Shown here piece by piece: positions 1 to 52,018 of a stretch of 64,000 bases of DNA (positions are counted from its first letter, which is position 1; each line of letters opens with the position of its first letter). The DNA is taken from positions 45,877 through 109,876 of the IMG/VR virus record IMGVR_UViG_3300036800_000175. One strand, 5' to 3'. The position numbers were made by a program, and so were the translations under genes. The notes under the pieces are model-generated. The model worked only from the letters and a program-made list of their open reading frames with translations, was not told where the DNA came from and ran no database searches. Source of the stretch: a virus.

Positions 1-1
1 C

Positions 2-163
2 CTGGCTGCGCTCGGCGCGTTCGGGTTGCACATGGACGCCCACATGCAGGCGGAGTTCCTCACCGGCATCGGGATCGTGCTCGGCCTGGTCCTGCGGCTG
101 CACCAGACCCCCGTCACCCCACCGGCCGTCACCCCACCGGCGGCGGCGCACGCGGCCGGGTGA
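2..163 (+). CDS. 3' end of probable holin / small membrane protein (truncated by window edge)
   Basis: Reads LAALGAFGLHMDAHMQAEFLTGIGIVLGLVLRLHQTPVTPP..., hydrophobic; stop overlaps next start (GTGA); lies upstream of endolysin. Confidence 0.55.
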   Translation: MAALGAFGLHMDAHMQAEFLTGIGIVLGLVLRLHQTPVTPPAVTPPAAAHAAG

Positions 164-468
164 CCGGCTGGCTGGGGCACTGGCTCGGCCTCGACAACGT
201 CGCGGGCCAAATCTACGCCTGGTGGTCCGGCAGCGGGTCGGTGATCCTCCCGTGGATCCTGAACTCCCTCACGGTCGCGGCCCTGTTCTGGTGGCACCAC
301 CAGTGCCACGTCTCCGGGTGCTGGTGGTATGCCCGCCGCACCACGGCGGCCGGTGAACGCGCCTGCTGGCGCCACCATCCCCATCCGCGGCGGACCGCCG
401 CGGATCTGCTCACCGCGCATCACGCCGCTATCCGCGCCGGCACCAACACGAACGGAGGCGCACCGTGA
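160..468 (+). CDS. lysis-cassette membrane protein, hypothetical
   Basis: Hydrophobic segment then C/H-rich tail; GTGA coupling at both ends. Confidence 0.6.
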   Translation: MTGWLGHWLGLDNVAGQIYAWWSGSGSVILPWILNSLTVAALFWWHHQCHVSGCWWYARRTTAAGERACWRHHPHPRRTAADLLTAHHAAIRAGTNTNGGAP

Positions 469-1313
469 CCCTTGCAGGTGTTGACGTGGCGGTCTACCAG
501 GGGACACCCGGCAGCTGGCGGGCGGAGGCAGGCGCGATCGCGTGGGCCGGGGTGAAGATCAGCGAACTGTCATCCGCCGGGCCCTACATTTCCCCGGACG
601 CCGCGGCGGACTGGGCGTATCTCAAGGCCCACGGCAAAGGCCGGGTCGGCTACCTGTTCGGTCACCCCGCCACCGGCCCGGCGGCGACGGTCAGCCTGTT
701 CGCGGATGAGCTCGCCCGCCTCGGCCTGGACGACGGCGACGGCATCGCGCTGGACCTCGAGCAATCCGACGGGCTGCCGCCCGGCCATGTGGCCACCTGG
801 GCGGGGCAGGTCATGGCACAGCTTGAGCATGTGCTGCACCGGACCCCGCTGCTGTACACCTTCCTCAGCTTCGCCCAGGGCGGGAACTGTGCCGGGCTCG
901 GCCGGTACCCGCTGTGGATCGCGGACCCGTCCAGCCCGGCCGGCCACCCGCGGGTACCGGGCCCGTGGTCGGGGTGGGCGATCCACCAGCATTCGATCAC
1001 CGGCAGCATCGACCGGGACGTCGCCGCCTGGGCCACGATGGCCGCGATGCGCGGCGAGCTCGGGAAGAAAGGAACCGCCGTGGCAGGGCAGACGATCGAC
1101 TGGAAGGCTGCGGGCAGCAGCAAGACGCTCGCGGAGCTGGCCGCGGACCGGAAGGTGGGGCCGTCCACGATCCTGCGGCTGACAGCGCAGCACGGGGCGG
1201 GGGGGAAGTTCCCCGGCCCGGTCGCGGCGTGGCTGGACGCGGTATTCACTGGGACGACGGCACCGTCGGCGCCGATCCCCGCGGATGTGGTGCTGCGGGT
1301 GCCTGCCAGCTGA
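465..1313 (+). CDS. endolysin, GH25 muramidase
   Basis: GVDVAVYQG N-terminus, ALDLE, YPLWIA, IDRD motifs of GH25; GGAGG RBS. Confidence 0.85.
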   Translation: MTLAGVDVAVYQGTPGSWRAEAGAIAWAGVKISELSSAGPYISPDAAADWAYLKAHGKGRVGYLFGHPATGPAATVSLFADELARLGLDDGDGIALDLEQSDGLPPGHVATWAGQVMAQLEHVLHRTPLLYTFLSFAQGGNCAGLGRYPLWIADPSSPAGHPRVPGPWSGWAIHQHSITGSIDRDVAAWATMAAMRGELGKKGTAVAGQTIDWKAAGSSKTLAELAADRKVGPSTILRLTAQHGAGGKFPGPVAAWLDAVFTGTTAPSAPIPADVVLRVPAS

Positions 1314-1540
1314 AACGCGCGGTGGGCGGCGTGCGGGGCCTTGCGCGACGGAACTCGGCAGCCGGCTTCACCAGGCTCCGACGAACAACCCTTGCTCCCC
1401 GCACGCCGCTTCGGGACAGTCTGGCCCGTCTCGTCCGCATTGTCTACCTGGTCTGTGACTAACGGTCACAATGGTATGTGTGGCTGATACGGGTGATACC
1501 CGGGGTACAGGTGTGACGGGCCCGGTCGTAACGTTGGGTC

Positions 1541-1792
1541 ATGTCCGGGGAGATCGACCGTTGGAGCGAGACGCCCTACAAGGAGCAGCTCGCCGGGTTC
1601 ATCCGCGCCCAGATCCAGGCCGGTGACCTGCAACCGGGCCAGCAACTCCCCAGCGAACAGCACCTCATGGCCACCTACCAGCTATCCCGGTCCACCGTCC
1701 GCGGTGCCCTTGAGCTACTCCGCGGCGGCGGATGGATCGAAACCCACCGTCGGCGCGGGTCACGCGTCAGCCAGAACCCGCCGCCCCGCTAG
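1541..1792 (+). CDS. GntR-family wHTH regulator (HTH only)
   Basis: QLAGFIRAQIQAGDLQPGQQLPSEQHLM...SRSTVRGALELL...GSRV. Confidence 0.9.
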   Translation: MSGEIDRWSETPYKEQLAGFIRAQIQAGDLQPGQQLPSEQHLMATYQLSRSTVRGALELLRGGGWIETHRRRGSRVSQNPPPR

Positions 1793-1808
1793 CGGCCGCA
1801 AAAGCAAA

Positions 1809-1850
1809 GAGCCCCCGGCAGCGTTCGCGCTGCCGGGGGCTCCCCTTTTT
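1809..1850. terminator. bidirectional intrinsic terminator
   Basis: GAGCCCCCGGCAGCG-TTCG-CGCTGCCGGGGGCTC, T run downstream and A-rich upstream, between convergent genes. Confidence 0.85.
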
Positions 1851-1863
1851 GCATGTGCTGGGG

Positions 1864-2043
1864 TCAGCCGTGGAACATGTCCGGGGACGCCCCGTGGTAC
1901 ATGTCCGGGGACGCCGCCGCCACGACCGGGGCGGAGTTCGCGGTGGCGACGATCGACGGGACCGCCACGGCGGCACCGGAACTGATGGTGCCGGCCACGA
2001 TCATTGTGGCGGCGAACTTTCTCGGGATGCGGGTGATTCTCAT
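1864..2043 (-). CDS. 59-aa secreted pro-peptide with tandem C-terminal cores ASPDMYHG/ASPDMFHG (not in ORF track)
   Basis: MRITRIPRKFAATMIVAGTISSGAAVAVPSIVATANSAPVVAAASPDMYHGASPDMFHG*; GAAGGA RBS; stop just before the terminator. Confidence 0.8.
   Translation of the reverse strand: MRITRIPRKFAATMIVAGTISSGAAVAVPSIVATANSAPVVAAASPDMYHGASPDMFHG
1868..1915. repeat. 24-bp tandem repeat (2 copies, 1 mismatch) encoding the peptide cores
   Basis: CCGTGG(A/T)ACATGTCCGGGGACGCC x2. Confidence 0.95.
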
Positions 2044-2086
2044 CGGGCGGGTTTCCTTCCATCGGGGGGGCCTTCAACGTCGGGGA

Positions 2087-2467
2087 TCATGAGACGGGCC
2101 ACTGCGGTTCCACCAGCGCAGCCAGCTGGGTGAGCCTGCTGCGGCCCATGAGCGACGGCAGCCCGGTGCCCTCAGCGCGGCATGAGTTGGTGGTGATCTG
2201 CCAGGTGCTGCCGAGGTACTCACCGTCGGCTTTGCTCACCGCGGCAACCCCCGCCTCAGGGGCCAGTTCCCGGGCGATGCTCAGCAGGTCAAGGCCCTTG
2301 TCGCGGTCACCGAAAATCAGGGTGAGGATGTCACCCTTGCCGTCGTTGAAATTGATCGCGGCCACATCAATAGGCCGCTCAGCGGTCTCCGACCACCACA
2401 GCGGGCAGACACGCGCCAGACGCGTAAGGGTGCGGTAGACGCTTGCGTCAGCGTCCTGAAAAAGCAT
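2087..2467 (-). CDS. hypothetical protein, likely co-transcribed with the peptide gene
   Basis: 126 aa, GGGGAG RBS, promoter-like TAGACG-N18-TAGGGT upstream. Confidence 0.7.
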   Translation of the reverse strand: MLFQDADASVYRTLTRLARVCPLWWSETAERPIDVAAINFNDGKGDILTLIFGDRDKGLDLLSIARELAPEAGVAAVSKADGEYLGSTWQITTNSCRAEGTGLPSLMGRSRLTQLAALVEPQWPVS

Positions 2468-2681
2468 CGGCTTCTCCCCGTTGCTCCTGTGTGTCTGGCT
2501 GGTACCCTACGTCTGCTTAGTACGATCCGTCTAGGTCCCCGGCGGGTACCGCAGGCTGGCTTCCGGAACGTGACCGCGGAGGTGGGGGGGGGCCAGCTGA
2601 ATCCGGTTACCCGCCGGGTTGCTTAGCGGGTTAGCGTGAAGCAACGGCTTGACCTGAGTCGTTGTTCAAGGGATTGCGCAG

Positions 2682-2723
2682 GAACGCCGCCCGGCCCCCG
2701 CAGCGGGGGGCCGGGCGGCGTTC
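2682..2723. terminator. GC-rich hairpin terminator ending the leftward operon
   Basis: GAACGCCGCCCGGCCCCC...GGGGGCCGGGCGGCGTTC next to stop at 2729. Confidence 0.75.
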
Positions 2724-2728
2724 TTCTG

Positions 2729-2956
2729 CTATGCGCGGGGTACGGCGCCGGGGAGGGCGAGCGCGGCGCGGATCAGCGCCCACGGGCCGTCGCCGTAGCG
2801 GTGCCACACGGTGCCGACATCGGTCGTGTCCCGGGTGACCAGGTACGTGCTGACCGTGCCGGGCGGCAGGCCACTGGTTTCGGTGTTGCTGGTCCGGCGG
2901 ATCACCAGCGTGCCGATCCGCTCATCGTTGACCATGAGCGGGAACCACAGGCTCAC
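2729..2956 (-). CDS. hypothetical protein
   Basis: 75 aa, coupled to upstream gene. Confidence 0.6.
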   Translation of the reverse strand: MSLWFPLMVNDERIGTLVIRRTSNTETSGLPPGTVSTYLVTRDTTDVGTVWHRYGDGPWALIRAALALPGAVPRA

Positions 2957-3417
2957 GGGGAGTCCTGGTCGCTGGTTTCCGGCGTGGCCCCCGATTCCGC
3001 GCCGGAAACCAGCTGATCCCAGTCCACCACCACCGCTGGATCCAGGTCCGGCACCTCACCGGCGATGACGTCGCGGGCCGCGCCGGGGCCGAGCCGCTCG
3101 AGCACGGCGGCGAGCGCCCGGTCATGCCCGGCGTTCGCAGCCGCTACGGTGGCGTACCGCTCCTGATAGTCGTCCAGGTCGTCATCGCCGCCGATGTGGA
3201 CGTCACCGGGCGCGAAGATCATCGTCTCAAAGATGATCGGCACGGTGGATCCCCAGCCGTGGTCGATGCCGAGCCACACGGTAGAGATCGTCCAGCCGCG
3301 CACATGATGGACCGCGACCCGCAGATACTCAAGATCCCCATGCTTGACCGCCCATTCCTCGGGCTCAATGGGCTGCCCATCGCGGTCGTAGAACAGGTGG
3401 TACCGGCCGTAGAACAC
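2953..3417 (-). CDS. conserved phage hypothetical protein
   Basis: ISTVWLGIDH...PIIFETMIF motif of a common phage family. Confidence 0.7.
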   Translation of the reverse strand: MFYGRYHLFYDRDGQPIEPEEWAVKHGDLEYLRVAVHHVRGWTISTVWLGIDHGWGSTVPIIFETMIFAPGDVHIGGDDDLDDYQERYATVAAANAGHDRALAAVLERLGPGAARDVIAGEVPDLDPAVVVDWDQLVSGAESGATPETSDQDSP

Positions 3418-3423
3418 GGGAGG

Positions 3424-3921
3424 TCAGCCGACCGTGGCCACGGCCGCCGCGAGCGTGGCGAGCGTGGCGCAGGTGCTCTTGACGTAGCCGGCGTCCCGGT
3501 ACGCCTCGCCGCCCATCCGGATCGGCTCCCAGCCGTACTCGGCTGCGTCGTGGGCATCCTGGCCGGGCATGACGTCCCAGGTGCCGGCGCAATGGAATCC
3601 CAGCCACCACACCCGGTCGGGCTCGCCCGGGCCGGGGACGTGGCAGATGGTGCGGTCCTCCGGGCCCGGCTCGCACAACCCGGAATAGGTCAGTTCCCGG
3701 TCGCCGGCCCACAGGGGAATTGAGTCGCAGGGCGCCTCAAACCAGGGGTGGCCTTCGGGGACGCCGACGTAGCCGCACAGCGCACCGGACCGGGGGTTGC
3801 GTTTCAGCAGGCACGGCAGGCCGGTGGACTCATCGGCCCACTGTTCCTTGTCGGGCTCACCCATCCACGGGCCGGGTGCCCAGCTGGTTTTGTCGATCGT
3901 GGTCCACGTCCGGTTATCCAC
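3424..3921 (-). CDS. conserved phage hypothetical protein
   Basis: LCGYVGVPEGHPW...ELTYS...WWLGFHCA motif. Confidence 0.7.
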   Translation of the reverse strand: MDNRTWTTIDKTSWAPGPWMGEPDKEQWADESTGLPCLLKRNPRSGALCGYVGVPEGHPWFEAPCDSIPLWAGDRELTYSGLCEPGPEDRTICHVPGPGEPDRVWWLGFHCAGTWDVMPGQDAHDAAEYGWEPIRMGGEAYRDAGYVKSTCATLATLAAAVATVG

Positions 3922-4058
3922 CGCCGGAGCCTCCCCCCGTCTGCGGCGTCTGGCGGAGCCTGCCTACGGGAAAGTCAGCGATGAAGTTACCCGCAGGCAG
4001 GTCCGGTTAACTCAATGTAGCGGGAGGGTGGGGGGCGTGCCCAGCGGAAACGCCAACG

Positions 4059-4286
4059 TCAGCGACGGCGGGCGCGGCGGCGGCGATCCGTCTCAGCGTG
4101 CGCGGCCAGCAGGCCGTACACGGCCAGGAAGACGATCAGCGCGGCCAGGACGGTGATGAGGACGCCCAGCCACAGGGCGGCGATCCACGCCCAGGTGACG
4201 CCACCGGCGGCGAAGATGATCAGGTACAGCCAGCCCGCGCCGGCGACGCGGCGGCGGCGGCGGATGCATGCTCTCACAGCCCCCAC
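4059..4286 (-). CDS. small two-TM membrane protein
   Basis: Long hydrophobic stretch flanked by Arg clusters. Confidence 0.5.
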   Translation of the reverse strand: MGAVRACIRRRRRVAGAGWLYLIIFAAGGVTWAWIAALWLGVLITVLAALIVFLAVYGLLAAHAETDRRRRARRR

Positions 4287-4514
4287 TATACCCGGTCAAG
4301 TTGACCACGTCTAAAACGGCCAACACGGCAACCGGGCGGGCGGACATATCCGAAAATACAGGAGGGGCCAGGGCGGCGGATGCGCATATCCGTCTTCGCC
4401 CGCCCTGGCCCCGCCTGCCCCCCCCGATCAGGACGCACCACCCCGTGCCCGGGTAATGCGACGCCCAGCGTACGGCAAACGATTACATCCCGCGCCCCTG
4501 AGATTACGGATCCT

Positions 4515-5135
4515 TTAACGTGACGGCCTGCCGCGCACCCCGGCCGTATCGCGGCGGCCACCACCGCCGAACCCGGCGGGCAGCGGCGCGCTGCGGGACA
4601 CCACCGCCCGGAACATCGTCATCAGGGCATCCGGGACGTCACCTTCCAGGCCTTCGACGCGCTGCGTGTCGATCCTGTCCTGGCCGCGGGTCTGGAACGC
4701 GGTGAACATGCCCATGCGGGTCATCGCCCACACGGTCCGCTGCTCAACCCGGCCCGGGTGAGCGTACAACCTGCGGCGGTGGGCGGCGCGCTGCGCCCGC
4801 CGGACCGCGGCCTCATCGCTGACCGGGGTGGCGACCGTCCATGTTTCGCAGCGGAACACCACGCCGTGGAACGATTCCGGGGCGAGGGCGACCAGCGCCT
4901 CACGGTACGGCGGTTCAGTCATGTTCCGGGCCAGGCCGGCCAGCACCTGCGCCGGCGGCCCTGACGCCCACACGCACTCCGGGACCAGCGACCGCCCGGA
5001 AATCCGGATCCGGCTGCCGTCGTCGTTGTACATGAAATGCAGGGCGGGTGGCTCATCCCACGCGCGGCGGGCCCGCAGCAGGTCCGCGAGCGCCATGCTG
5101 GTCAGGTCGGCCAGCGCCTGGCGGGACAGTTCCAT
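4515..5135 (-). CDS. hypothetical protein (distant paralog of 10003..10539)
   Basis: Start MELSRQAL; shared motif order WD.P / E.W or ESH / R..HP.R or R...RP. Confidence 0.6.
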   Translation of the reverse strand: MELSRQALADLTSMALADLLRARRAWDEPPALHFMYNDDGSRIRISGRSLVPECVWASGPPAQVLAGLARNMTEPPYREALVALAPESFHGVVFRCETWTVATPVSDEAAVRRAQRAAHRRRLYAHPGRVEQRTVWAMTRMGMFTAFQTRGQDRIDTQRVEGLEGDVPDALMTMFRAVVSRSAPLPAGFGGGGRRDTAGVRGRPSR

Positions 5136-5136
5136 G

Positions 5137-5400
5137 TCAGCCGATGCTCCCCGTGCACGGCTGGGCGGCGAGCTGCTCACTGTAGGCCTGCTCACATTTG
5201 AAACAGCCGGTCCCGCCGAAACCGATCATGTTTTCCACGTCCAGCAGCATCGACGTGTCGTCCCGGGTGCGCGGGTCGGGGATCCGCCACACGGCGGTCA
5301 CGCACCACAGATGCTCAGCAGGCCCGTCCGCGACGGCCAGCCGGGCCAGCAGCGTGCCCCCGTCGGGCGGGTTGTAGGTGCTGTCCAGCCCCCTGATCAT
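5137..5400 (-). CDS. hypothetical protein with CxxC
   Basis: MIRGLDSTY...GCFKCEQ; ATGA coupling. Confidence 0.55.
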   Translation of the reverse strand: MIRGLDSTYNPPDGGTLLARLAVADGPAEHLWCVTAVWRIPDPRTRDDTSMLLDVENMIGFGGTGCFKCEQAYSEQLAAQPCTGSIG

Positions 5401-5710
5401 GTGGCGTCGTCCCACGCCTGCATGGCGTCTTTCAGGCTGTCCGCGATGCGCCGGCCGCCGCTCGAGCGGAGCCGCAACGCGAACACCGGGCACAGTTGCG
5501 CGGCGAGATCCTTCCCCGCGTACGTCATCGCGGTCACCAGCGTCGCGACCGGCATGGCGTCGTCTGAGCGCTGGATCCCGAACGCCGGCACGCTGGACTC
5601 GCGGAGCCGGGCGGGGACACGCACATCCGGTCCCAAGGGCAGGTCGTGCAGAGCATGGCCGGGTCGGAGCCTTCGGCCAGTGCCTTCGACGCCGCCTCAT
5701 AGTTACCCAC
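5397..5710 (-). pseudogene. frameshifted or internally deleted hypothetical gene
   Basis: N-terminus (MGNYEAASKALAEG...CTTCPWDRMC) and C-terminus (...CPVFALRLRSSGG) lie in different frames, junction near 5610. Confidence 0.45.
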
Positions 5711-5738
5711 ACACACCCCCAGTTACGTTAAGCGAGGG

Positions 5739-6017
5739 CTATGTTACCGCGCGTCCCTCCCCGGCCGCGGGATCTCCGGTCAGCGACTTGAGCAGCACCC
5801 GGAACCCGTCGCTCTTGGCCTGGCACGCCAGATGCCAGCCGCAGCGGCCCCGGGTCGCAGCCCGGCACGCGTCGCAGGTCAGGGCTTCCTGCGTGGTGTC
5901 CCACGTTGCGATGGATTCCTCAAGGGATTCCAGGACCTGCGGGAGGGCGTCCCCGGCGACGATGATCGGCACGTTGCGGCCGCGGACGATGACCGTCTGC
6001 TCGATGACTGCGGTCAC
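5739..6017 (-). CDS. hypothetical protein with CxxC...CxxH
   Basis: 92 aa, GGGAG RBS. Confidence 0.6.
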   Translation of the reverse strand: MTAVIEQTVIVRGRNVPIIVAGDALPQVLESLEESIATWDTTQEALTCDACRAATRGRCGWHLACQAKSDGFRVLLKSLTGDPAAGEGRAVT

Positions 6018-7458: not shown

Positions 7459-7884
7459 TCATCCCCCAGCGGGATCGCGCGGCGGGACGTCCACGTCCGC
7501 GTCAGCGGCCGCGGCCGTCAGCAGGCGCTCACCTGCGCCCGCTGCCCGTGCGTCCGCGCATAGGCGCACCCATTCGGCGGTGGCCGCTTCCGCGCGGTCC
7601 CGTGCGGCGGCGGCGGCCCGCGCTGTCGTGCCGAGCTCCCGGCGCCAGCGCCGCTCTAGGCGCTCATCCATGCGGGCGGGGGCCGGTGGGGGAGTGGGCG
7701 CGGGAACGGCCGCGAGCGGCGGCGCTGTAGCGGCTGCGGGCGCTGCGGGCTGATCTGGTGCGGTAGCAGGGGGGTGGCTGCCCGGCGCGGCAGGGGCCGC
7801 CTCAGCGCCGTCGCCCAGCTTGGCGGTGCCGATCTTCCCGAACGCTGCCTCTGCGGCCGCACCGGCGCGCTGGCGGGCCATCAC
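7459..7884 (-). CDS. putative ParA partner (centromere-binding candidate)
   Basis: Coupled directly downstream of parA; flexible N-terminus, helical C-terminus. Confidence 0.5.
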   Translation of the reverse strand: MMARQRAGAAAEAAFGKIGTAKLGDGAEAAPAAPGSHPPATAPDQPAAPAAATAPPLAAVPAPTPPPAPARMDERLERRWRRELGTTARAAAAARDRAEAATAEWVRLCADARAAGAGERLLTAAAADADVDVPPRDPAGG

Positions 7885-8489
7885 GCGGCCGCCGCGTCGC
7901 TGGCCAGTTCCTCGAGCACGCCTGCGTACTCGCCCAGGTCGGCGGGCACCGTGCCGTAACCGAGGGGGTACCGCTCGAGGTTGTGCACCTCAGCGGCCAT
8001 GACCTTGAGGTTGTGGTCGGTCAGCCACGCGCGGGCTAGCCGGCTGCTGCGGGTGCCGGCGCGGATCTTGACCAGCAGCACCTGGGGGTACACCGGGGAC
8101 ACGGCGTCGATCTCGGCGGCCAGGGCGAACGTGTCGGGCAGCTGCTCAAGTTCCATGGGGCTCGGGGCGACCGGGATGAGCAGCTCGTCGGTGATCATCA
8201 GTGCTTTGCGCAGCAACAGGTCGTCGTGGGGGCTGGTGTCGATGAGGATGTCATCGAAGTCGCCGGCGATGGCCTGGATGCTGCGGACCAGGTCGTCCCC
8301 GAACGCGAGCACGGTGACTGACCCGGGCCAGTCTGGGGCCAGGGCTTTCCATTTCAGGCAGGTTTTGTTGGTGGTGTCCTCATCCACGATGAGGACCCTC
8401 CGCCCTTGCCGGGCGAGGGCGAGCGCGAGGTACACGGTGGTCGTGGATTTCGCCACGCCACCTTTCAGATTGCCTATGGTTGCCTTCAT
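7881..8489 (-). CDS. parA: ParA partition ATPase
   Basis: MKATIGNLKGGVAKST deviant Walker A; LIVDED; ILIDTSP; LLIPVAPS. Confidence 0.9.
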   Translation of the reverse strand: MKATIGNLKGGVAKSTTTVYLALALARQGRRVLIVDEDTTNKTCLKWKALAPDWPGSVTVLAFGDDLVRSIQAIAGDFDDILIDTSPHDDLLLRKALMITDELLIPVAPSPMELEQLPDTFALAAEIDAVSPVYPQVLLVKIRAGTRSSRLARAWLTDHNLKVMAAEVHNLERYPLGYGTVPADLGEYAGVLEELASDAAAA

Positions 8490-8582
8490 GTGGGGTAAAG
8501 TACCGCGCCCAATCCTGCGGAGCGCGGACACGCCGGGCGACACACACGAAAAACGACCTAGCCCCATCGTAGAGTTCTGACT

Positions 8583-8888
8583 ATGGCCCCCCAGGCGCGC
8601 ATGACGCTGCCGACCGCGCTGGTGCTCGCCCGGCTCGCGACGGCCGCGCCCGGCGAGCTGTACGGGCGGCAGATCATGACCATGACCGGGCTCCGCGGCG
8701 GCACCATTTACCCGCTGCTGGCCCGCCTCGAAAGCAGGGGCCTGGTCGAATCGCGGCGCGAGACAATCAACCCGGCGAGGGAAGGGCGGCCGCCGCGCCT
8801 GTTCTACCGGCTCACCGACGCCGGGAAGGCTGAGGCGCAGGCCCACGCCACCCGGTACAGCGCCACCTTCACCCCTGGGGAGGGATGA
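8583..8888 (+). CDS. PadR-family regulator
   Basis: LYGRQI...GTIYPLLARLESRGLV...RLFYRLT. Confidence 0.85.
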   Translation: MAPQARMTLPTALVLARLATAAPGELYGRQIMTMTGLRGGTIYPLLARLESRGLVESRRETINPAREGRPPRLFYRLTDAGKAEAQAHATRYSATFTPGEG

Positions 8889-8891
8889 GTC

Positions 8892-9368
8892 TTGGATGCA
8901 GCAGCGATCGGTGAGGCAGCCGACCAGGCGTTCCGGGCCGCGTTCAACGGCGACCGGGAAACAGTCGCGGACCGGCTGGGCGACATTGCGGAGCGCTGGG
9001 GACCGCCCGGGATCCACGCCGCGGTCATGGGCTGGTCCGCGATCACCCTCAAAGCCATGACCGGCGACGGGTTCAATGACCGGGCCGAGTTCTACGCCCT
9101 TGAGGTGACCGAGAACGCCACAGGCAAGACGACCAGCGTCGACCAGATGTACTCCGGGCCCGAACAGCAGGCGATCCAGATGGTCACCCTGTACGGCAAC
9201 CGCGACGACGCCACCTCGATCGCGATGATCAAAACGGCATGCGCGGGCCCGGACTATGGCGCGGGCCTGATGGTCGCATCGGTCACCCTCGCTGCGGAAT
9301 CTGCCCGCAGCCACCTTGAGCAGCACGCCGCGACCTGCCGCGGATGCAATAAGGATCACCCCGCATGA
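8892..9368 (+). CDS. hypothetical protein
   Basis: 158 aa, in operon with PadR. Confidence 0.6.
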   Translation: MDAAAIGEAADQAFRAAFNGDRETVADRLGDIAERWGPPGIHAAVMGWSAITLKAMTGDGFNDRAEFYALEVTENATGKTTSVDQMYSGPEQQAIQMVTLYGNRDDATSIAMIKTACAGPDYGAGLMVASVTLAAESARSHLEQHAATCRGCNKDHPA

Positions 9369-9616
9369 CTGACCGCGATCCGGTTCCGTACCAGGTGACC
9401 CGCGTGTGGACGGTCCTGGCCACCGACGGGCAAGACGCGTTGGACAAGGCCCGGCCGGGGGAGCATCACGACGTGGTCGTCCGACCGATGCCATGCGGTG
9501 ACTGGCCGTTGCCGTGCACCCACAACCCGCAGCACGTCCGCCCCGCCGGTGAGCGCGAGGCGCGGCGCGAGCAAATCCGGCGGGACTTCGCCCCACCGCG
9601 CGAGTCTCCGTCATGA
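9365..9616 (+). CDS. hypothetical protein
   Basis: ATGA coupling. Confidence 0.55.
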   Translation: MTDRDPVPYQVTRVWTVLATDGQDALDKARPGEHHDVVVRPMPCGDWPLPCTHNPQHVRPAGEREARREQIRRDFAPPRESPS

Positions 9617-9780
9617 TCCACGTCACCTACGACGGCGACACCTACTGGCTGCAATGCTTCGCGGACGACCCGGACGCTGAGCACGGCGAGATCATTCACC
9701 CGATAGACGCGGGTGACAGCTGGGATGAGATGGCGGCGAAGGTGGCCGGGCACCGGGCCGAGCACGGGTGCCAATTGTGA
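9613..9780 (+). CDS. 55-aa hypothetical protein (not in ORF track)
   Basis: MIHVTYDGDTYWLQC...HRAEHGCQL*, coupled at both ends. Confidence 0.55.
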   Translation: MIHVTYDGDTYWLQCFADDPDAEHGEIIHPIDAGDSWDEMAAKVAGHRAEHGCQL

Positions 9781-13234: not shown

Positions 13235-13498
13235 TCAGTCGGCAGGAGCCAGGTCGCGGGCCGGGCGGATGAACACCGCGAGATAGGCGCCGTCGTCGTC
13301 GGACAGGAAGTCATCGAACTCGCCGGCCTTGGCGCCGTCGATGAATGCGGCCAGTTCAGCGCGGGTGTATCGCAGCTGCGGGCCGTCCGGGTCGCGGCTG
13401 TTGCGCATCGCGATGTTCCCGTCAGGCAGTTCGGCCACCTCAACGCAGTTGCCGTTGTGGGCGCTCCAGCTGGACTTGCGCCAGGAAAGATCATCCAC
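13235..13498 (-). CDS. DUF397 family protein (orphan)
   Basis: WRKSSWS..NGNCVEVA...MRNSRDPDGPQL.YT..E..AFIDG.K.GEFD; GGAG RBS. Confidence 0.9.
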   Translation of the reverse strand: MDDLSWRKSSWSAHNGNCVEVAELPDGNIAMRNSRDPDGPQLRYTRAELAAFIDGAKAGEFDDFLSDDDGAYLAVFIRPARDLAPAD

Positions 13499-13876
13499 GG
13501 GTTGGTGTCTCCGTCCGTACGCCCGGCGGGTGGCCACCCCGGAGTCCCCAGTGTCCCGTTCAGCCGCCTGCGGGGTGGCCCCCCAGGGTGCCGTAGCGGG
13601 ATCAACCTACCGGCTCTGCGGGGCGGGTTGCAGGCGGTTGGCTGCATGTACGGGAAGGTACCTTACGCGCTACGCCCGGCGGGGGACAACCCCTCCCGGA
13701 CCAGGGCAAAAACCGCTAGCTTTACATAATCAACGTTATCGGCGTAAGACAAAGGGGGGCAAACCGGGCACGTCTCGTCTCACCGAACATGTCGTTTGCC
13801 AGCCATCATGTCGCTGTCAGCGCCGTCCCATAGGCTCGCAGGCACCACGTTTGGCCTACGTTTCGGAGACCCCCCC

Positions 13877-42319: not shown

Positions 42320-42601
42320 GTGACCACCGACCACATTGACCACGAGGGCGAAACGCCCATTTACTTGCAGCTTGCGAACATTCTCCGCCAGCAGATACTA
42401 GCTGGCGAACTCCTGCCACGACGCCCGATCCCCTCTAAGCGCACACTCACCCAACGGCACGGGATCGCCGGCGTCACAGTGGACAAAGCGACCAGGATCC
42501 TCAAAGACGAGGGCCTGCTCAACACAGTGCCCGGGAAGGGATTGTATGTCCGGGCACCCGAAGATCAGGGGGGAGGCGGGGGGACCGGGCTAGTGAGCTA
42601 G
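42320..42601 (+). CDS. GntR-family wHTH regulator (HTH only)
   Basis: PIYLQLANILRQQILAGEL...IPS...TVDKA..ILKDEGL...PGKGLYV. Confidence 0.9.
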   Translation: MTTDHIDHEGETPIYLQLANILRQQILAGELLPRRPIPSKRTLTQRHGIAGVTVDKATRILKDEGLLNTVPGKGLYVRAPEDQGGGGGTGLVS

Positions 42602-44399: not shown

Positions 44400-45211
44400 G
44401 CTGGCCACCTTTGCAGCTGGGTTGTGTAGGCGAACACGGTCCGGTCGCCCGGCAGGATCACCTCTGAATACTCCGCCACGTCCCCCGCCGTGTCGATAGA
44501 CGTTTTCCGGAGCACCAGCACCGATTCGCCATCGTCAAGATCCAGCAGATGCTTTTCGTCGTCGCTCGCCGGCCGGCCGGTGAGCTCGTCGGTGATCTTG
44601 TCGATCTCGATCCCGACGGTGCGGAGTTGATGCATGGTGCCGCCTGGCCACGGTTCGTTGCCGGAGTCCAGCAGGTCAGGGTTCGCGGCGACCAGGTCAT
44701 AGCGCAGCCACGAGGTGACGATGTTCAGCGGCACGTCTTTCGCCTCGCGGACGCTGGTCGCATAGGTGCGGCGCAGCATCGGGGTGCCTTCGGGTATCCC
44801 GAATCGTTCCGCGACATCCCCGGGCGCGGCCGTCATCTCATAGCCCGCAGTGAACAGCAGGTCGCCCATTTCAAGGCCGGTGTCGTGCTCGGTGGCACCC
44901 GTCTCACCCCGCTCGAGCGGCGTGAGCAGCGCCCGGTCCTTTTCCCACTGGTAGCGGGTGGTGTGGTCGCGGCGCACAGGGTGACGCGGGATCCGGACGA
45001 ACGTCCCCCGGCCTTTCTCAGTGCGGATTAGTCCTTCGCCGCGGATGACGTCGATCGCGTGCCGGACCGTGGTCCGCGACACCCCGTAGGCGGCGGCGAG
45101 TTCAGGTTCGCTTGGCAGCTTCTCCCCCGGGCCCAGGTCGCCGCTCGCGATCCGCTCGCGCAGGCCGGCGGCTACCTGGATGTGCTGCGGCCGGTAGTCG
45201 TGTGTGGTCAC
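44396..45211 (-). CDS. GntR/HutC-type repressor with UTRA domain (Kor-like)
   Basis: LPSEPELAAAYGVSRTTVRHA...GRGTFVR plus C-terminal UTRA; divergent from transfer-like operon. Confidence 0.9.
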   Translation of the reverse strand: MTTHDYRPQHIQVAAGLRERIASGDLGPGEKLPSEPELAAAYGVSRTTVRHAIDVIRGEGLIRTEKGRGTFVRIPRHPVRRDHTTRYQWEKDRALLTPLERGETGATEHDTGLEMGDLLFTAGYEMTAAPGDVAERFGIPEGTPMLRRTYATSVREAKDVPLNIVTSWLRYDLVAANPDLLDSGNEPWPGGTMHQLRTVGIEIDKITDELTGRPASDDEKHLLDLDDGESVLVLRKTSIDTAGDVAEYSEVILPGDRTVFAYTTQLQRWPA

Positions 45212-45240
45212 GGACCACAAGTTAACACGCCGGTATGTCT

Positions 45241-49975: not shown

Positions 49976-52018
49976 ATGGCTGGCATGCAGCAGCAGGGAA
50001 GCGAAGCCCGGGTCGTGGAGGCTGAGCATCACGGCCTGCTGGTCCCGTTCTACTGGATGTTCGCCTCCGATGCGACCGTCCTGGCTGCCTCCCTGCTGCT
50101 GCCGTCCTGGCGGCTGCTCATCGCCGCCGTGGCCGCCGCGCTTGCGATCGGCAGGCAGGTCCGGCAGGTCCGCCGGATCGAGGATGAGATAGCGGAGGCC
50201 ACCGGGCAGCCGGTGGTCCGCCACAAGCCACCCATCCTGCGGTGGACGCTCGGCACCCTGTGGCTCCTGATCGCCGCCGCGGCCGGGCTGCGCCTGGTCC
50301 CGCAGGTGGTGATGCAGATCCTGCTGATCATCGGCGTGTACGCGATCGCGGCGAAGCACTGGTCCCGCAACCGGGTGCCGCACGACGCCCCGCACACCCG
50401 CATCATCACCTCTGGTGCCACCGTGATCCTGGACGACGACGACGCCCAGGCCGCACCGCCGCAGGCCGCACCGTTCGCCACCCCACCCGGCCCGCCGCCC
50501 ACGCCGGCCCCGCCGCCGCCCGCACCGGCCCCTGCGGAGAGTTCCTATGTGGTGCCCCGGATGGGCACCCTGGCCGCGGGTGTGGTCGCGGCGGCCCGCA
50601 CCGCAGCCAACGATTCCGTGATCCGGGCGCTCACCGAACTGTTTGACCAGTTCAAGGTGGACGCCCGGGTCACCGGCTTCAAACGCGGTCCGACGGTCAC
50701 CCGGTATGAGGTGGAACTCGGCCCGGCAGTGAAAGTTGAGCGGGTCACCGCCCTGACCAGGAACATCGCGCTCGCGGTCAAGACGGCGGATGTGCGGATC
50801 TTGTCGCCGGTCCCGGGAAGATCCGTGATCGGCATTGAGATCCCCAACGCGGACAAGGACCTGGTCCGGCTGGGGGACATCCTCCGCTCACCCGCCGCAC
50901 TGATGGACCCCCATCCGATGGTTGTGGGGCTCGGCAAGGACGTTGAGGGCCGCACCGTCATCGCGAACCTCGCGAAGATGCCTCACATGCTCATTGCCGG
51001 CGCGACCGGCGCGGGGAAATCCACCTGCATCTACGGGCTGATCACCTCAATCCTCATGCGGGCCACCGTTGAGGACGTCCGGATGATCCTGATCGACCCC
51101 AAGCGGGTCGAACTGGCCATCTACGCCGGCATCCCGCACCTGTACACCCCGATCATCACCAGCGCGAAGAAAGCCGCTGAGGCCCTGGCGTGGGTGGTCG
51201 GGGAGATGGACCGCCGCTACGACGACCTGGCCGCGTTCGGGTTCCGGCATATAGACGACTTCAACGCCGCGGTCCGCGGCGGCAAGGTCGTCCTCCCGCC
51301 GGGCAGTGAGCGGATCCTCAGGCCGTACCCGTACCTGCTGGTCATCGTGGATGAGCTGGCCGACCTGATGATGGTCGCCCCCCGCGACGTTGAAGACTCG
51401 ATCGTCCGGATCACCCAGCTGGCCCGCGCCGCCGGGATTCATCTGGTGCTCGCCACCCAGCGGCCGTCAGTGGACGTGGTCACCGGGATCATCAAAGCCA
51501 ACGTGCCCGCCCGGCTCGCGTTCGGCACCTCAAGCCTCACCGACAGCCGGGTCATCCTCGATCAGCCGGGCGCGGAGAAACTCGTCGGGGAAGGCGACTG
51601 CCTGTACCTGCCGATGGGGGCGAGCATCCCCACCCGGCTGCAAAACGCGTTCGTCACCGAAGGCGAAGTCCGCGACGTGGTCGCCCAGTGCAAGGCGCAG
51701 GGCTCACCGGAATACCGCGAAGACTTCACCACGCCAGACCGGGCGGCCCGGGAAATAGACGCGGAAATCGGTGACGACCTGACGCTGCTCAGGCAAGCCG
51801 CCGAACTTATCATCCGCACCCAATTCGGCTCAACATCAATGCTGCAACGCAAACTCCGCGTCGGGTTCGCGAAAGCGGGCCGGCTAATGGACCTGCTCGA
51901 GGCACGGCAGATCGTCGGACCCTCCGAAGGGTCGAAGGCCCGCGATGTCCTGGTCCGCCCCGACGACCTGACCCAGACGCTCGCAGCCCTGGACCCAGAC
52001 AGTGAAAGGACCACCTGA
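49976..52018 (+). CDS. ftsK: FtsK/SpoIIIE DNA translocase (TraB-like role, host-type motor and gamma domain)
   Basis: [69 protein letters not shown]; N-terminal TMs. Confidence 0.95.

Follow-up and report, generated by a model that had tools for sequence, protein, structure and literature searches.

The phage genome analysed here carries, on the minus strand at positions 1864-2043, a real gene for a 59-residue propeptide whose homologues lie on the chromosomes of a narrow clade of uncultured soil Actinomycetes, each adjoining the gene for a regulator with a TPR sensor that has no homologue in the phage. We think it slightly better than an even bet that the phage propeptide is a host-derived signal mimic, which would act through the host receptor. 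The evidence is computational throughout, and the hosts are represented by uncultured MAGs. The window, by which we mean the whole 64-kb stretch of DNA that was analysed, was taken from the right-hand end of a 109,876-bp IMG/VR virus record, which CheckV rates as complete.

The propeptide gene (1864-2043, stop codon included) was defined by ORF calling, GC3 and homologues, and consists of a 59-codon reading frame with an ATG start and a Shine-Dalgarno-like GGAAGGA on the same strand at 2054-2060, 10 nt 5' of the ATG. Residues 1-35 (1939-2043, minus strand) form a signal-peptide-like part, in which heuristics recognise an n-region of charge +4, an uncharged run of 26 residues and small-x-small sites at ATA/N, the site noted for this part, and AAA/S. 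Two octapeptides, ASPDMYHG and then ASPDMFHG, stand directly before the stop codon; these putative mature peptides are encoded by two tandem 24-bp units at 1867-1914 (minus strand), for which Tandem Repeats Finder gave a period of 24 bp, 2.0 copies and 95% matches at 1868-1915. Beyond the gene lies a bidirectional intrinsic terminator hairpin (1809-1842) of 15 pairs, 13 of them G-C, which is common to the propeptide gene and the convergent GntR gene. As minus-strand RNA the hairpin has a folding energy of -50.8 kcal/mol (z -5.4, equalled by 0 of 200 shuffles), and because it has flanking A and T runs it can also end the GntR gene. The preliminary description of this DNA had noted the ribosome binding site, the basic N-terminus with a hydrophobic signal-like segment, the twice-repeated eight-residue C-terminal unit with its Tyr/Phe exchange and the gene's own terminator, all of which are confirmed here.

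The gene is short, has overlapping ORFs around it on both strands and encodes a protein that matches no Pfam, NCBIfam or PHROG family, as might be seen for a chance ORF in DNA of 70% G+C. We put the probability of this at practically nil, because conservation excludes it: the frame is kept in about 30 genomes, with a pN/pS of 0.19 in the signal part (codons 1-32 of eight equal-length host genes). The GC3 of 0.90, which is typical for long genes in the same genome, the ribosome binding site and the terminator also argue against chance. An antisense ORF at 1853-2092 (plus strand) was considered as the real gene and rejected, since the minus-strand frame is both conserved in other genomes and under purifying selection.

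A 126-aa ORF (2087-2467, minus strand; GC3 0.79) lies directly upstream across a gap of 43 nt and is probably co-transcribed with the propeptide gene. A G+C-rich hairpin read from the sequence just past the stop of the upstream 75-aa gene (2682-2723, minus strand) and the terminator at 1809-1842 bound these two genes as a cassette. The 126-aa protein, with which the preliminary description had proposed to co-fold the core, belongs to no Pfam, NCBIfam or PHROG family, has no relatives in phages by tblastn, in the related-loci search or in the host clade, and gave no confident fold (predicted pLDDT 42). The convergent gene encodes an 83-aa GntR-type winged helix-turn-helix (wHTH) protein without an effector domain (1541-1792, plus strand; PF00392, E 5e-17), and apart from its place in the locus nothing was found that ties it to the propeptide. 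The phage genome has three such paralogues, with mutual identities of 36-44%; the others are at about 88202-88402 of the whole genome (about 42326-42526 of the window, plus strand) and about 90872-91102 (about 44996-45226 of the window, minus strand). The 83-aa protein has no similarity to the GntR-FCD protein of the host locus, and tblastn found no homologue of the host regulator, amidohydrolase or GntR-FCD protein in the 110-kb phage genome. The record further encodes a GH25 lysin, a terminase large subunit, methyltransferases, an exonuclease, a ParA-type ATPase (region 7881-9626, minus strand) and an FtsK/SpoIIIE-like protein (49976-52018, plus strand; PHROG 1358, E 1e-98). The last two, beside a terminase, are plasmid- or conjugation-like and fit the idea of a phage-plasmid.

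Megablast of window positions 1-6000 against phages and plasmids, tblastn of the propeptide against phage records, a word-index protein search and a related-loci search with the phage lysin all returned nothing, the ESM Atlas gave only leads below 0.9, and five more distant viral records that share a 165-aa neighbour protein all lack the propeptide. The tandem pattern was not found in viral contigs, and neither alignment nor this pattern gave a confirmed relative among metagenome contigs. Four matches of the single-unit DNA pattern in viral contigs were rejected as chance occurrences inside unrelated frames. An exhaustive HMMER search gave one true relative, a 61-aa protein (E 6.5e-11), whose 90% cluster contains five metagenomic members, all with two SPxM[FY]HG units and with the signal part and an NSAPVV spacer in common. 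By manual count, variable positions among these near-identical proteins make up 5 of 16 in the core versus 5 of 45 elsewhere.

A degenerate tandem-motif scan of species-representative genomes produced mostly chance matches and one true match, in a MAG titled 'uncultured Actinomycetes bacterium' (hereafter G001). A profile search of 101 relatives of G001 matched in 31 genomes, about 26 of them convincingly and with one copy each. An even sample of 301 genomes from the same order gave two matches, both inside the G001 clade, so the family is real but narrow. The host homologues are confined to one clade of uncultured soil Actinomycetes, about 30 genomes in all. The preliminary description had proposed a motif search across genomes with a table of neighbouring genes, and this approach indeed recovered homologous cores in a conserved host neighbourhood.

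All members of the family have a well-conserved N-terminal part of 30-45 residues, in which heuristics find an n-region of +2 to +4, 20-27 uncharged residues and small-x-small sites. The C-terminus evolves differently, with a pN of 0.218 in the core vs 0.074 in the signal part. Endings differ by lineage (PNMYYG, PNMYFD, PGMHYG, PSMYHG, PNMFHG, LAMSYG, SKMLYD, PRMTYN, LQMMHD and SRIMLD); a Met is retained, and most lineages also have an aromatic residue at the place two from the end. The core unit is always at the very C-terminus, in 1, 2, 4 or 5 copies. Four tandem C-terminal units (..MSYG) are found in locus L177 of genome G021 and five (..HSRIMLD) in L208 of G020. A terminal unit that is multiplied and differs by lineage is what would be expected if the unit were the released product. 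The unit, which had been put forward as the mature signalling peptide, does behave like one, being hypervariable, C-terminal, present in one to five copies and predicted to bind in a TPR groove.

We viewed 26 short host loci, and 21 longer ones of 10-20 kb with gene maps, and in all of them the propeptide gene is divergent from the regulator gene, the two being 140-460 bp apart. Using tblastn, the LAL gene was placed on one side in 26 of 26 loci, and in 24 of these the opposite flank gave a match to an amidohydrolase or GntR-FCD gene. The regulator is about 946-976 codons long and, by its domain matches, is a LAL/MalT-type STAND protein with an AAA_16 NTPase, a TPR sensor and a C-terminal LuxR HTH. 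In the example at L173:4650-7580 (minus strand) these are PF13191 AAA_16 at residues 39-198, TPR_12, TPR_2 and TPR_MalT at about 400-840, and PF00196 GerE at 910-964. Downstream of the peptide are a convergent amidohydrolase gene, unmatched in at least three loci, and the GntR-FCD gene, while genes for a HATPase_c_2 protein, a mycothiol-dependent formaldehyde dehydrogenase and an MBL hydrolase lie beyond the regulator; these neighbours indicate a chromosomal setting.

Orthologues of the regulator (63-87% identity) are present in 23 of the 28 nearest genomes. The unpublished genome G067 gave only a match at the level of a paralogue, and none of the conclusions depends on it. Five regulator-bearing genomes had been missed by the first propeptide search, and in four of these a family peptide is divergent from the regulator: two peptides are intact, one has five tandem units ending IMLD and one is frameshifted. 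The fifth contig breaks off at the regulator gene. No regulator orthologue with a readable flank was seen to lack an adjoining peptide gene. The earlier remark that no TPR receptor is visible therefore stands for the phage, but the host encodes a TPR candidate beside its own copy of the peptide. As in many MAGs of the clade, frameshifts occur in L137, L140, L142 and L207 and in the regulator genes of L158, L166, L168, L169 and L172; the frameshifted peptide and regulator genes could be long-read assembly errors or real pseudogenes.

We modelled regulator residues 200-905 (alignment A3) in complex with residues 28-57 of the cognate peptide (alignment A4). The model gave ipSAE values of 0.68, 0.66 and 0.68, against 0.01 for the highest-scoring of three controls. 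Among solved complexes 58 of 80 attain this ipSAE mark, as do 2 of 110 mismatched pairs; these counts are only a rough guide because custom alignments were used here. Moreover, solved structures include many TPR-peptide complexes, and likeness to these may account for part of the pass. Partner pLDDT was low (39-42), and at least 46% of contacts recurred between runs. The confident interface in the model comprises exactly the last eight residues, ASPSMYHG, the host equivalent of the unit repeated in the phage propeptide, packed against regulator TPR residues 544-771. Arg544 and Arg547 contact the terminal residue in the model, and the invariant Asn622 contacts the two residues that precede it. 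Arg547 is conserved in all regulators but one; the sole Arg-ending peptide is paired with the sole regulator that has Gly at this contact position. By entropy the interface does not vary significantly more than other parts of the TPR region (p 0.16). Across 14 pairs, however, interface distance follows core distance with r 0.47, compared with r 0.23 for the rest of the protein, and in partial Mantel tests of the 14 pairs the interface retains r 0.42 (p 0.001) and the rest of the protein r 0.01. The host octapeptide is predicted to sit in the TPR groove of the regulator, and the model lends support to such binding.

The host peptide genes are oddly A+T-rich at third positions, with a GC3 of 0.52-0.72 in a clade of about 72% G+C. 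Of 26 host peptide genes, 23 have TTA as codon 13; for comparison, 0.66% of the Leu codons in 267 ORFs of the neighbourhood are TTA. A TTA close to the N-terminus is found in the regulator genes as well, and both members of the pair at L173:4650-7580 (minus strand, regulator) and L173:7950-8123 (plus strand, peptide) contain the codon. Judged from codon usage, the conserved TTA in peptide and regulator genes suggests a bldA-type translational checkpoint over the module. Fixed-position TTA codons recall the control by bldA (tRNA-Leu-UAA) in Streptomyces (PMC2000904, PMC10732093); the host clade may depend on such a tRNA in the same way, and the phage copy differs in having no TTA. It has, in fact, no Leu codon at all. 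Codons ending in A or T account for 8% of the phage copy vs 26-47% of the host copies, and its codon usage is typical of the phage.

Several similarities connect the phage to the G001 clade. Over positions 1864-1981, the last 118 nt of the gene, the phage propeptide gene is 73% identical at the nucleotide level to the chromosomal copy in G001, and for the lysin DNA, identities of 70-83% are seen with genomes of the G001 clade only, not with more distant ones. The doubled SPxM[FY]HG layout occurs, besides the phage, only in the G001 lineage and its metagenomic alleles. At contact positions 548, 580, 581, 584 and 587 the G001 regulator has distinctive residues in common with those of two genomes of MYHG/MFHG type, from which it differs at 662 and 665, and the phage propeptide encodes both the MYHG and the MFHG endings. 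The phage hosts likely lie within the G001 clade, as judged from these similarities. The GH25 lysin gene (623-1021) and a 100-aa ORF (13235-13537, PHROG 10815; match at 13304-13486) show 68-83% DNA identity to chromosomal genes in many genomes of the clade, which helps to assign the host.

The stretch was found almost whole in one soil-metagenome run, its probable source, and partly in runs of two other studies; there was no RNA run among those that carry it. Contigs from the runs of the other studies match the flanking genes, mostly at 80-95% likeness, and none matches the propeptide stretch at 80% likeness. In four other soil runs there is almost no contig depth across bins 1835-2095. Because related-phage contigs keep the flanks without a matching propeptide stretch, the gene appears to be variable or dispensable. 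The related phage (runs X2, X3, X5 and X6) keeps the GntR, 126-aa, 75-aa and 154-aa genes. In one of its contigs, positions 1768 and 2142 are separated by about 507 nt of unlike sequence vs the 373 nt (1769-2141, terminator and peptide gene) in the window; a loose-end 30-mer of this phage was absent from viral contigs.

We hypothesise that the phage gene encodes a Sec-type secreted propeptide that was acquired from, or is held in common with, an actinomycete host chromosome. In the host the propeptide would be exported, cleavage would free one or more C-terminal units of about eight residues, and a freed unit would be taken up again, its free C-terminus then binding the TPR groove of the regulator and so controlling transcription. 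This circuit would be gated by TTA codons in both the peptide and the regulator gene. The phage has the signal gene alone, in a terminator-bounded two-gene cassette and recoded to phage codon usage, with MYHG and MFHG units that match the variants of the nearest host lineages. Infected or lysogenic cells could then secrete a forged host signal, free of the host TTA checkpoint and with two units per precursor. It is possible that the forged peptide acts as an agonist or an antagonist on the host regulator in the same or neighbouring cells, and that through it the phage steers a host programme or flags its own presence. A bolder formulation, to which we give somewhat less than an even chance, is that the clade runs a TTA-gated, Sec-exported octapeptide pheromone read by a STAND/LAL TPR sensor, and that a temperate phage stole the signal gene alone, dropped the TTA and doubled the core.

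The main rival, which we consider unlikely but by no means negligible, is that the product is a non-signalling secreted peptide with a metal-binding, envelope or antagonistic role, merely controlled by the LAL protein in hosts and a moron or passenger in the phage, with that role or none. Divergent pairs of a regulator and its target are common and would equally fit a regulator that only controls a secreted product, and metals are typically bound by residues such as Met, His and Tyr. In related phage contigs the corresponding spot has no such gene or an unlike one, and the variability of the modelled interface is not enriched. Against this, a non-signalling role would leave unexplained the strict C-terminal placement and lineage-specific multiplication of the unit, a complex model with clean controls and a predicted pocket that covaries with the core, as well as a phage copy that is intact, recoded and equipped with its own ribosome binding site and terminator.

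It is improbable, in our judgement, that the phage instead has a self-contained system of the arbitrium or Phr kind, in which the 126-aa or a mini-GntR protein would be a new type of phage receptor steering lysis versus lysogeny. The peptide gene and the 126-aa ORF do form one terminator-bounded unit beside the convergent mini-GntR gene, there are three mini-GntR paralogues to choose from, and phage Rap-Phr and AimR-AimP use secreted C-terminal peptides, some of them duplicated (PMC11343458, PMC10075063). However, the 126-aa protein is without family, relatives or confident fold, the GntR-type proteins consist of a wHTH without a ligand domain and are unrelated to the GntR of the host locus, and the relatives of the peptide are paired with a host TPR regulator, not with either of these proteins. 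Of the arbitrium-like signal first proposed, the genuine secreted-type propeptide with its repeated core holds, but the self-contained phage system is not supported, as no receptor homologue is found in the phage. We give still less weight to a multi-core RiPP precursor, also raised in the preliminary description, whose repeated cores would be modified, for example by aromatic cross-links, and then released. Repeated short C-terminal cores with conserved Met and aromatic residues do resemble multi-core precursors, and an amidohydrolase gene often adjoins the host gene. Yet neither the 16-kb host loci nor the surroundings of the phage gene contain a conserved P450, radical-SAM, YcaO, lanthionine or other maturase, the amidohydrolase is not a constant neighbour, and bacterial RiPP leaders do not usually have a Sec-type signal peptide.

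The closest parallels to the propeptide and its host relatives are the RRNPP(A) systems (Rap-Phr, NprR-NprX, PlcR-PapR, PrgX, Rgg-SHP and AimR-AimP; PMC10075063, PMC9765709), in which, as in the host loci, the gene of a signal-bearing propeptide adjoins that of a cytoplasmic TPR regulator. There the active part is the C-terminal 5-8 residues, as is presumed for the C-terminal unit here; hypervariable cores with pherotype-like diversity are common to both, many Rgg-SHP pairs have the same divergent gene order, and the peptide lies in a TPR groove, as predicted for the host pair. The differences are that the host receptor is a STAND protein of about 960 aa, with an AAA_16 NTPase and a C-terminal LuxR/GerE HTH in place of the RRNPP fold, that the organisms are Actinomycetes and that the phage carries the peptide alone. 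An adjacent TPR receptor, as in RRNPP systems, is present in all host loci examined and absent from the phage. Re-import in RRNPP systems is by an oligopeptide permease, whose genes would not be expected to be linked to the peptide gene. As reconstructed, the host system works like RRNPP quorum sensing yet falls outside the family, because its receptor is a STAND/LAL protein and the phage has none.

Arbitrium (AimR-AimP-AimX) in Bacillus phages offers a likeness in its phage-borne, short, secreted-type propeptide with a presumed C-terminal signal. In our phage, in contrast, no AimR-like or TPR receptor and no AimX-like output were found, the neighbours are an orphan 126-aa ORF and a mini-GntR gene, and the peptide has its homologues in a gene family of the host chromosome. 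The Rap-Phr systems of phages phi3T and phi105 (PMC11343458) resemble it in having two near-identical pheromone units in tandem, but those phages encode the Rap receptor too, whereas here the sole receptor candidate is encoded by the host. VqmA-Phi of phage VP882 and phage LuxR-type receptors (PMC6456758, PMC10426928, PMC7790227) are likewise one half of a host quorum-sensing pair, through which the phage is coupled to the signalling of its host; the present case is their mirror image, with the phage holding the signal gene, and that signal a gene-encoded peptide. The host partner has the layout that defines LAL/MalT STAND factors, AAA_16 followed by a TPR/SUPR sensor and a LuxR HTH. Known ligands of LAL/MalT regulators are small molecules, such as maltotriose for MalT. 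To our knowledge no gene-encoded peptide ligand has been described for such a regulator, and a limited literature search found no report of a peptide-LAL pair.

Signals in Actinomycetes are described as typically small molecules, a statement also made in the RRNPP_detector paper, and gene-encoded peptide pheromones with cytoplasmic TPR receptors are regarded as a trait of the Bacillota (PMC10075063). Peptide signalling is not established in Actinomycetes, and our results suggest a candidate system of this kind there. If this is correct, it would provide a testable peptide-receptor pair in these bacteria, and the STAND/LAL regulators, which are very numerous in antibiotic producers, would gain their first class of peptide ligand. 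A phage with the signal half alone of a host communication pair would mirror the receptor-only phages, and peptide signalling would be tied to control by a rare codon (TTA). The octapeptides are short, apparently unmodified and easily synthesised, which makes binding and reporter tests direct.

Finally, the intergenic regions of the host loci have features of their own. In 14 of 21 loci (L158 and among L166-L185, for example L173:7580-7950) one or more TGCAAnTTGCA palindromes lie upstream of the peptide gene, 295-320 nt from its start, and such palindromes are rare elsewhere in the 16 kb. They may be a candidate operator of the LuxR-type regulator. The phage genome contains no copy of the palindrome and so gives no sign of phage promoters that answer to the host regulator. 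Rfam searches of two host loci found no family. The host 5' leader, which covers about 100 nt ahead of each peptide gene (for example L173:7850-7949), shows very strong conservation (TGCCGGAACGCATGCGCCGGGTTATCCAC ... TATGGAGGCGCC ATG), and across the clade this exceeds the conservation of the synonymous sites of the peptide gene.
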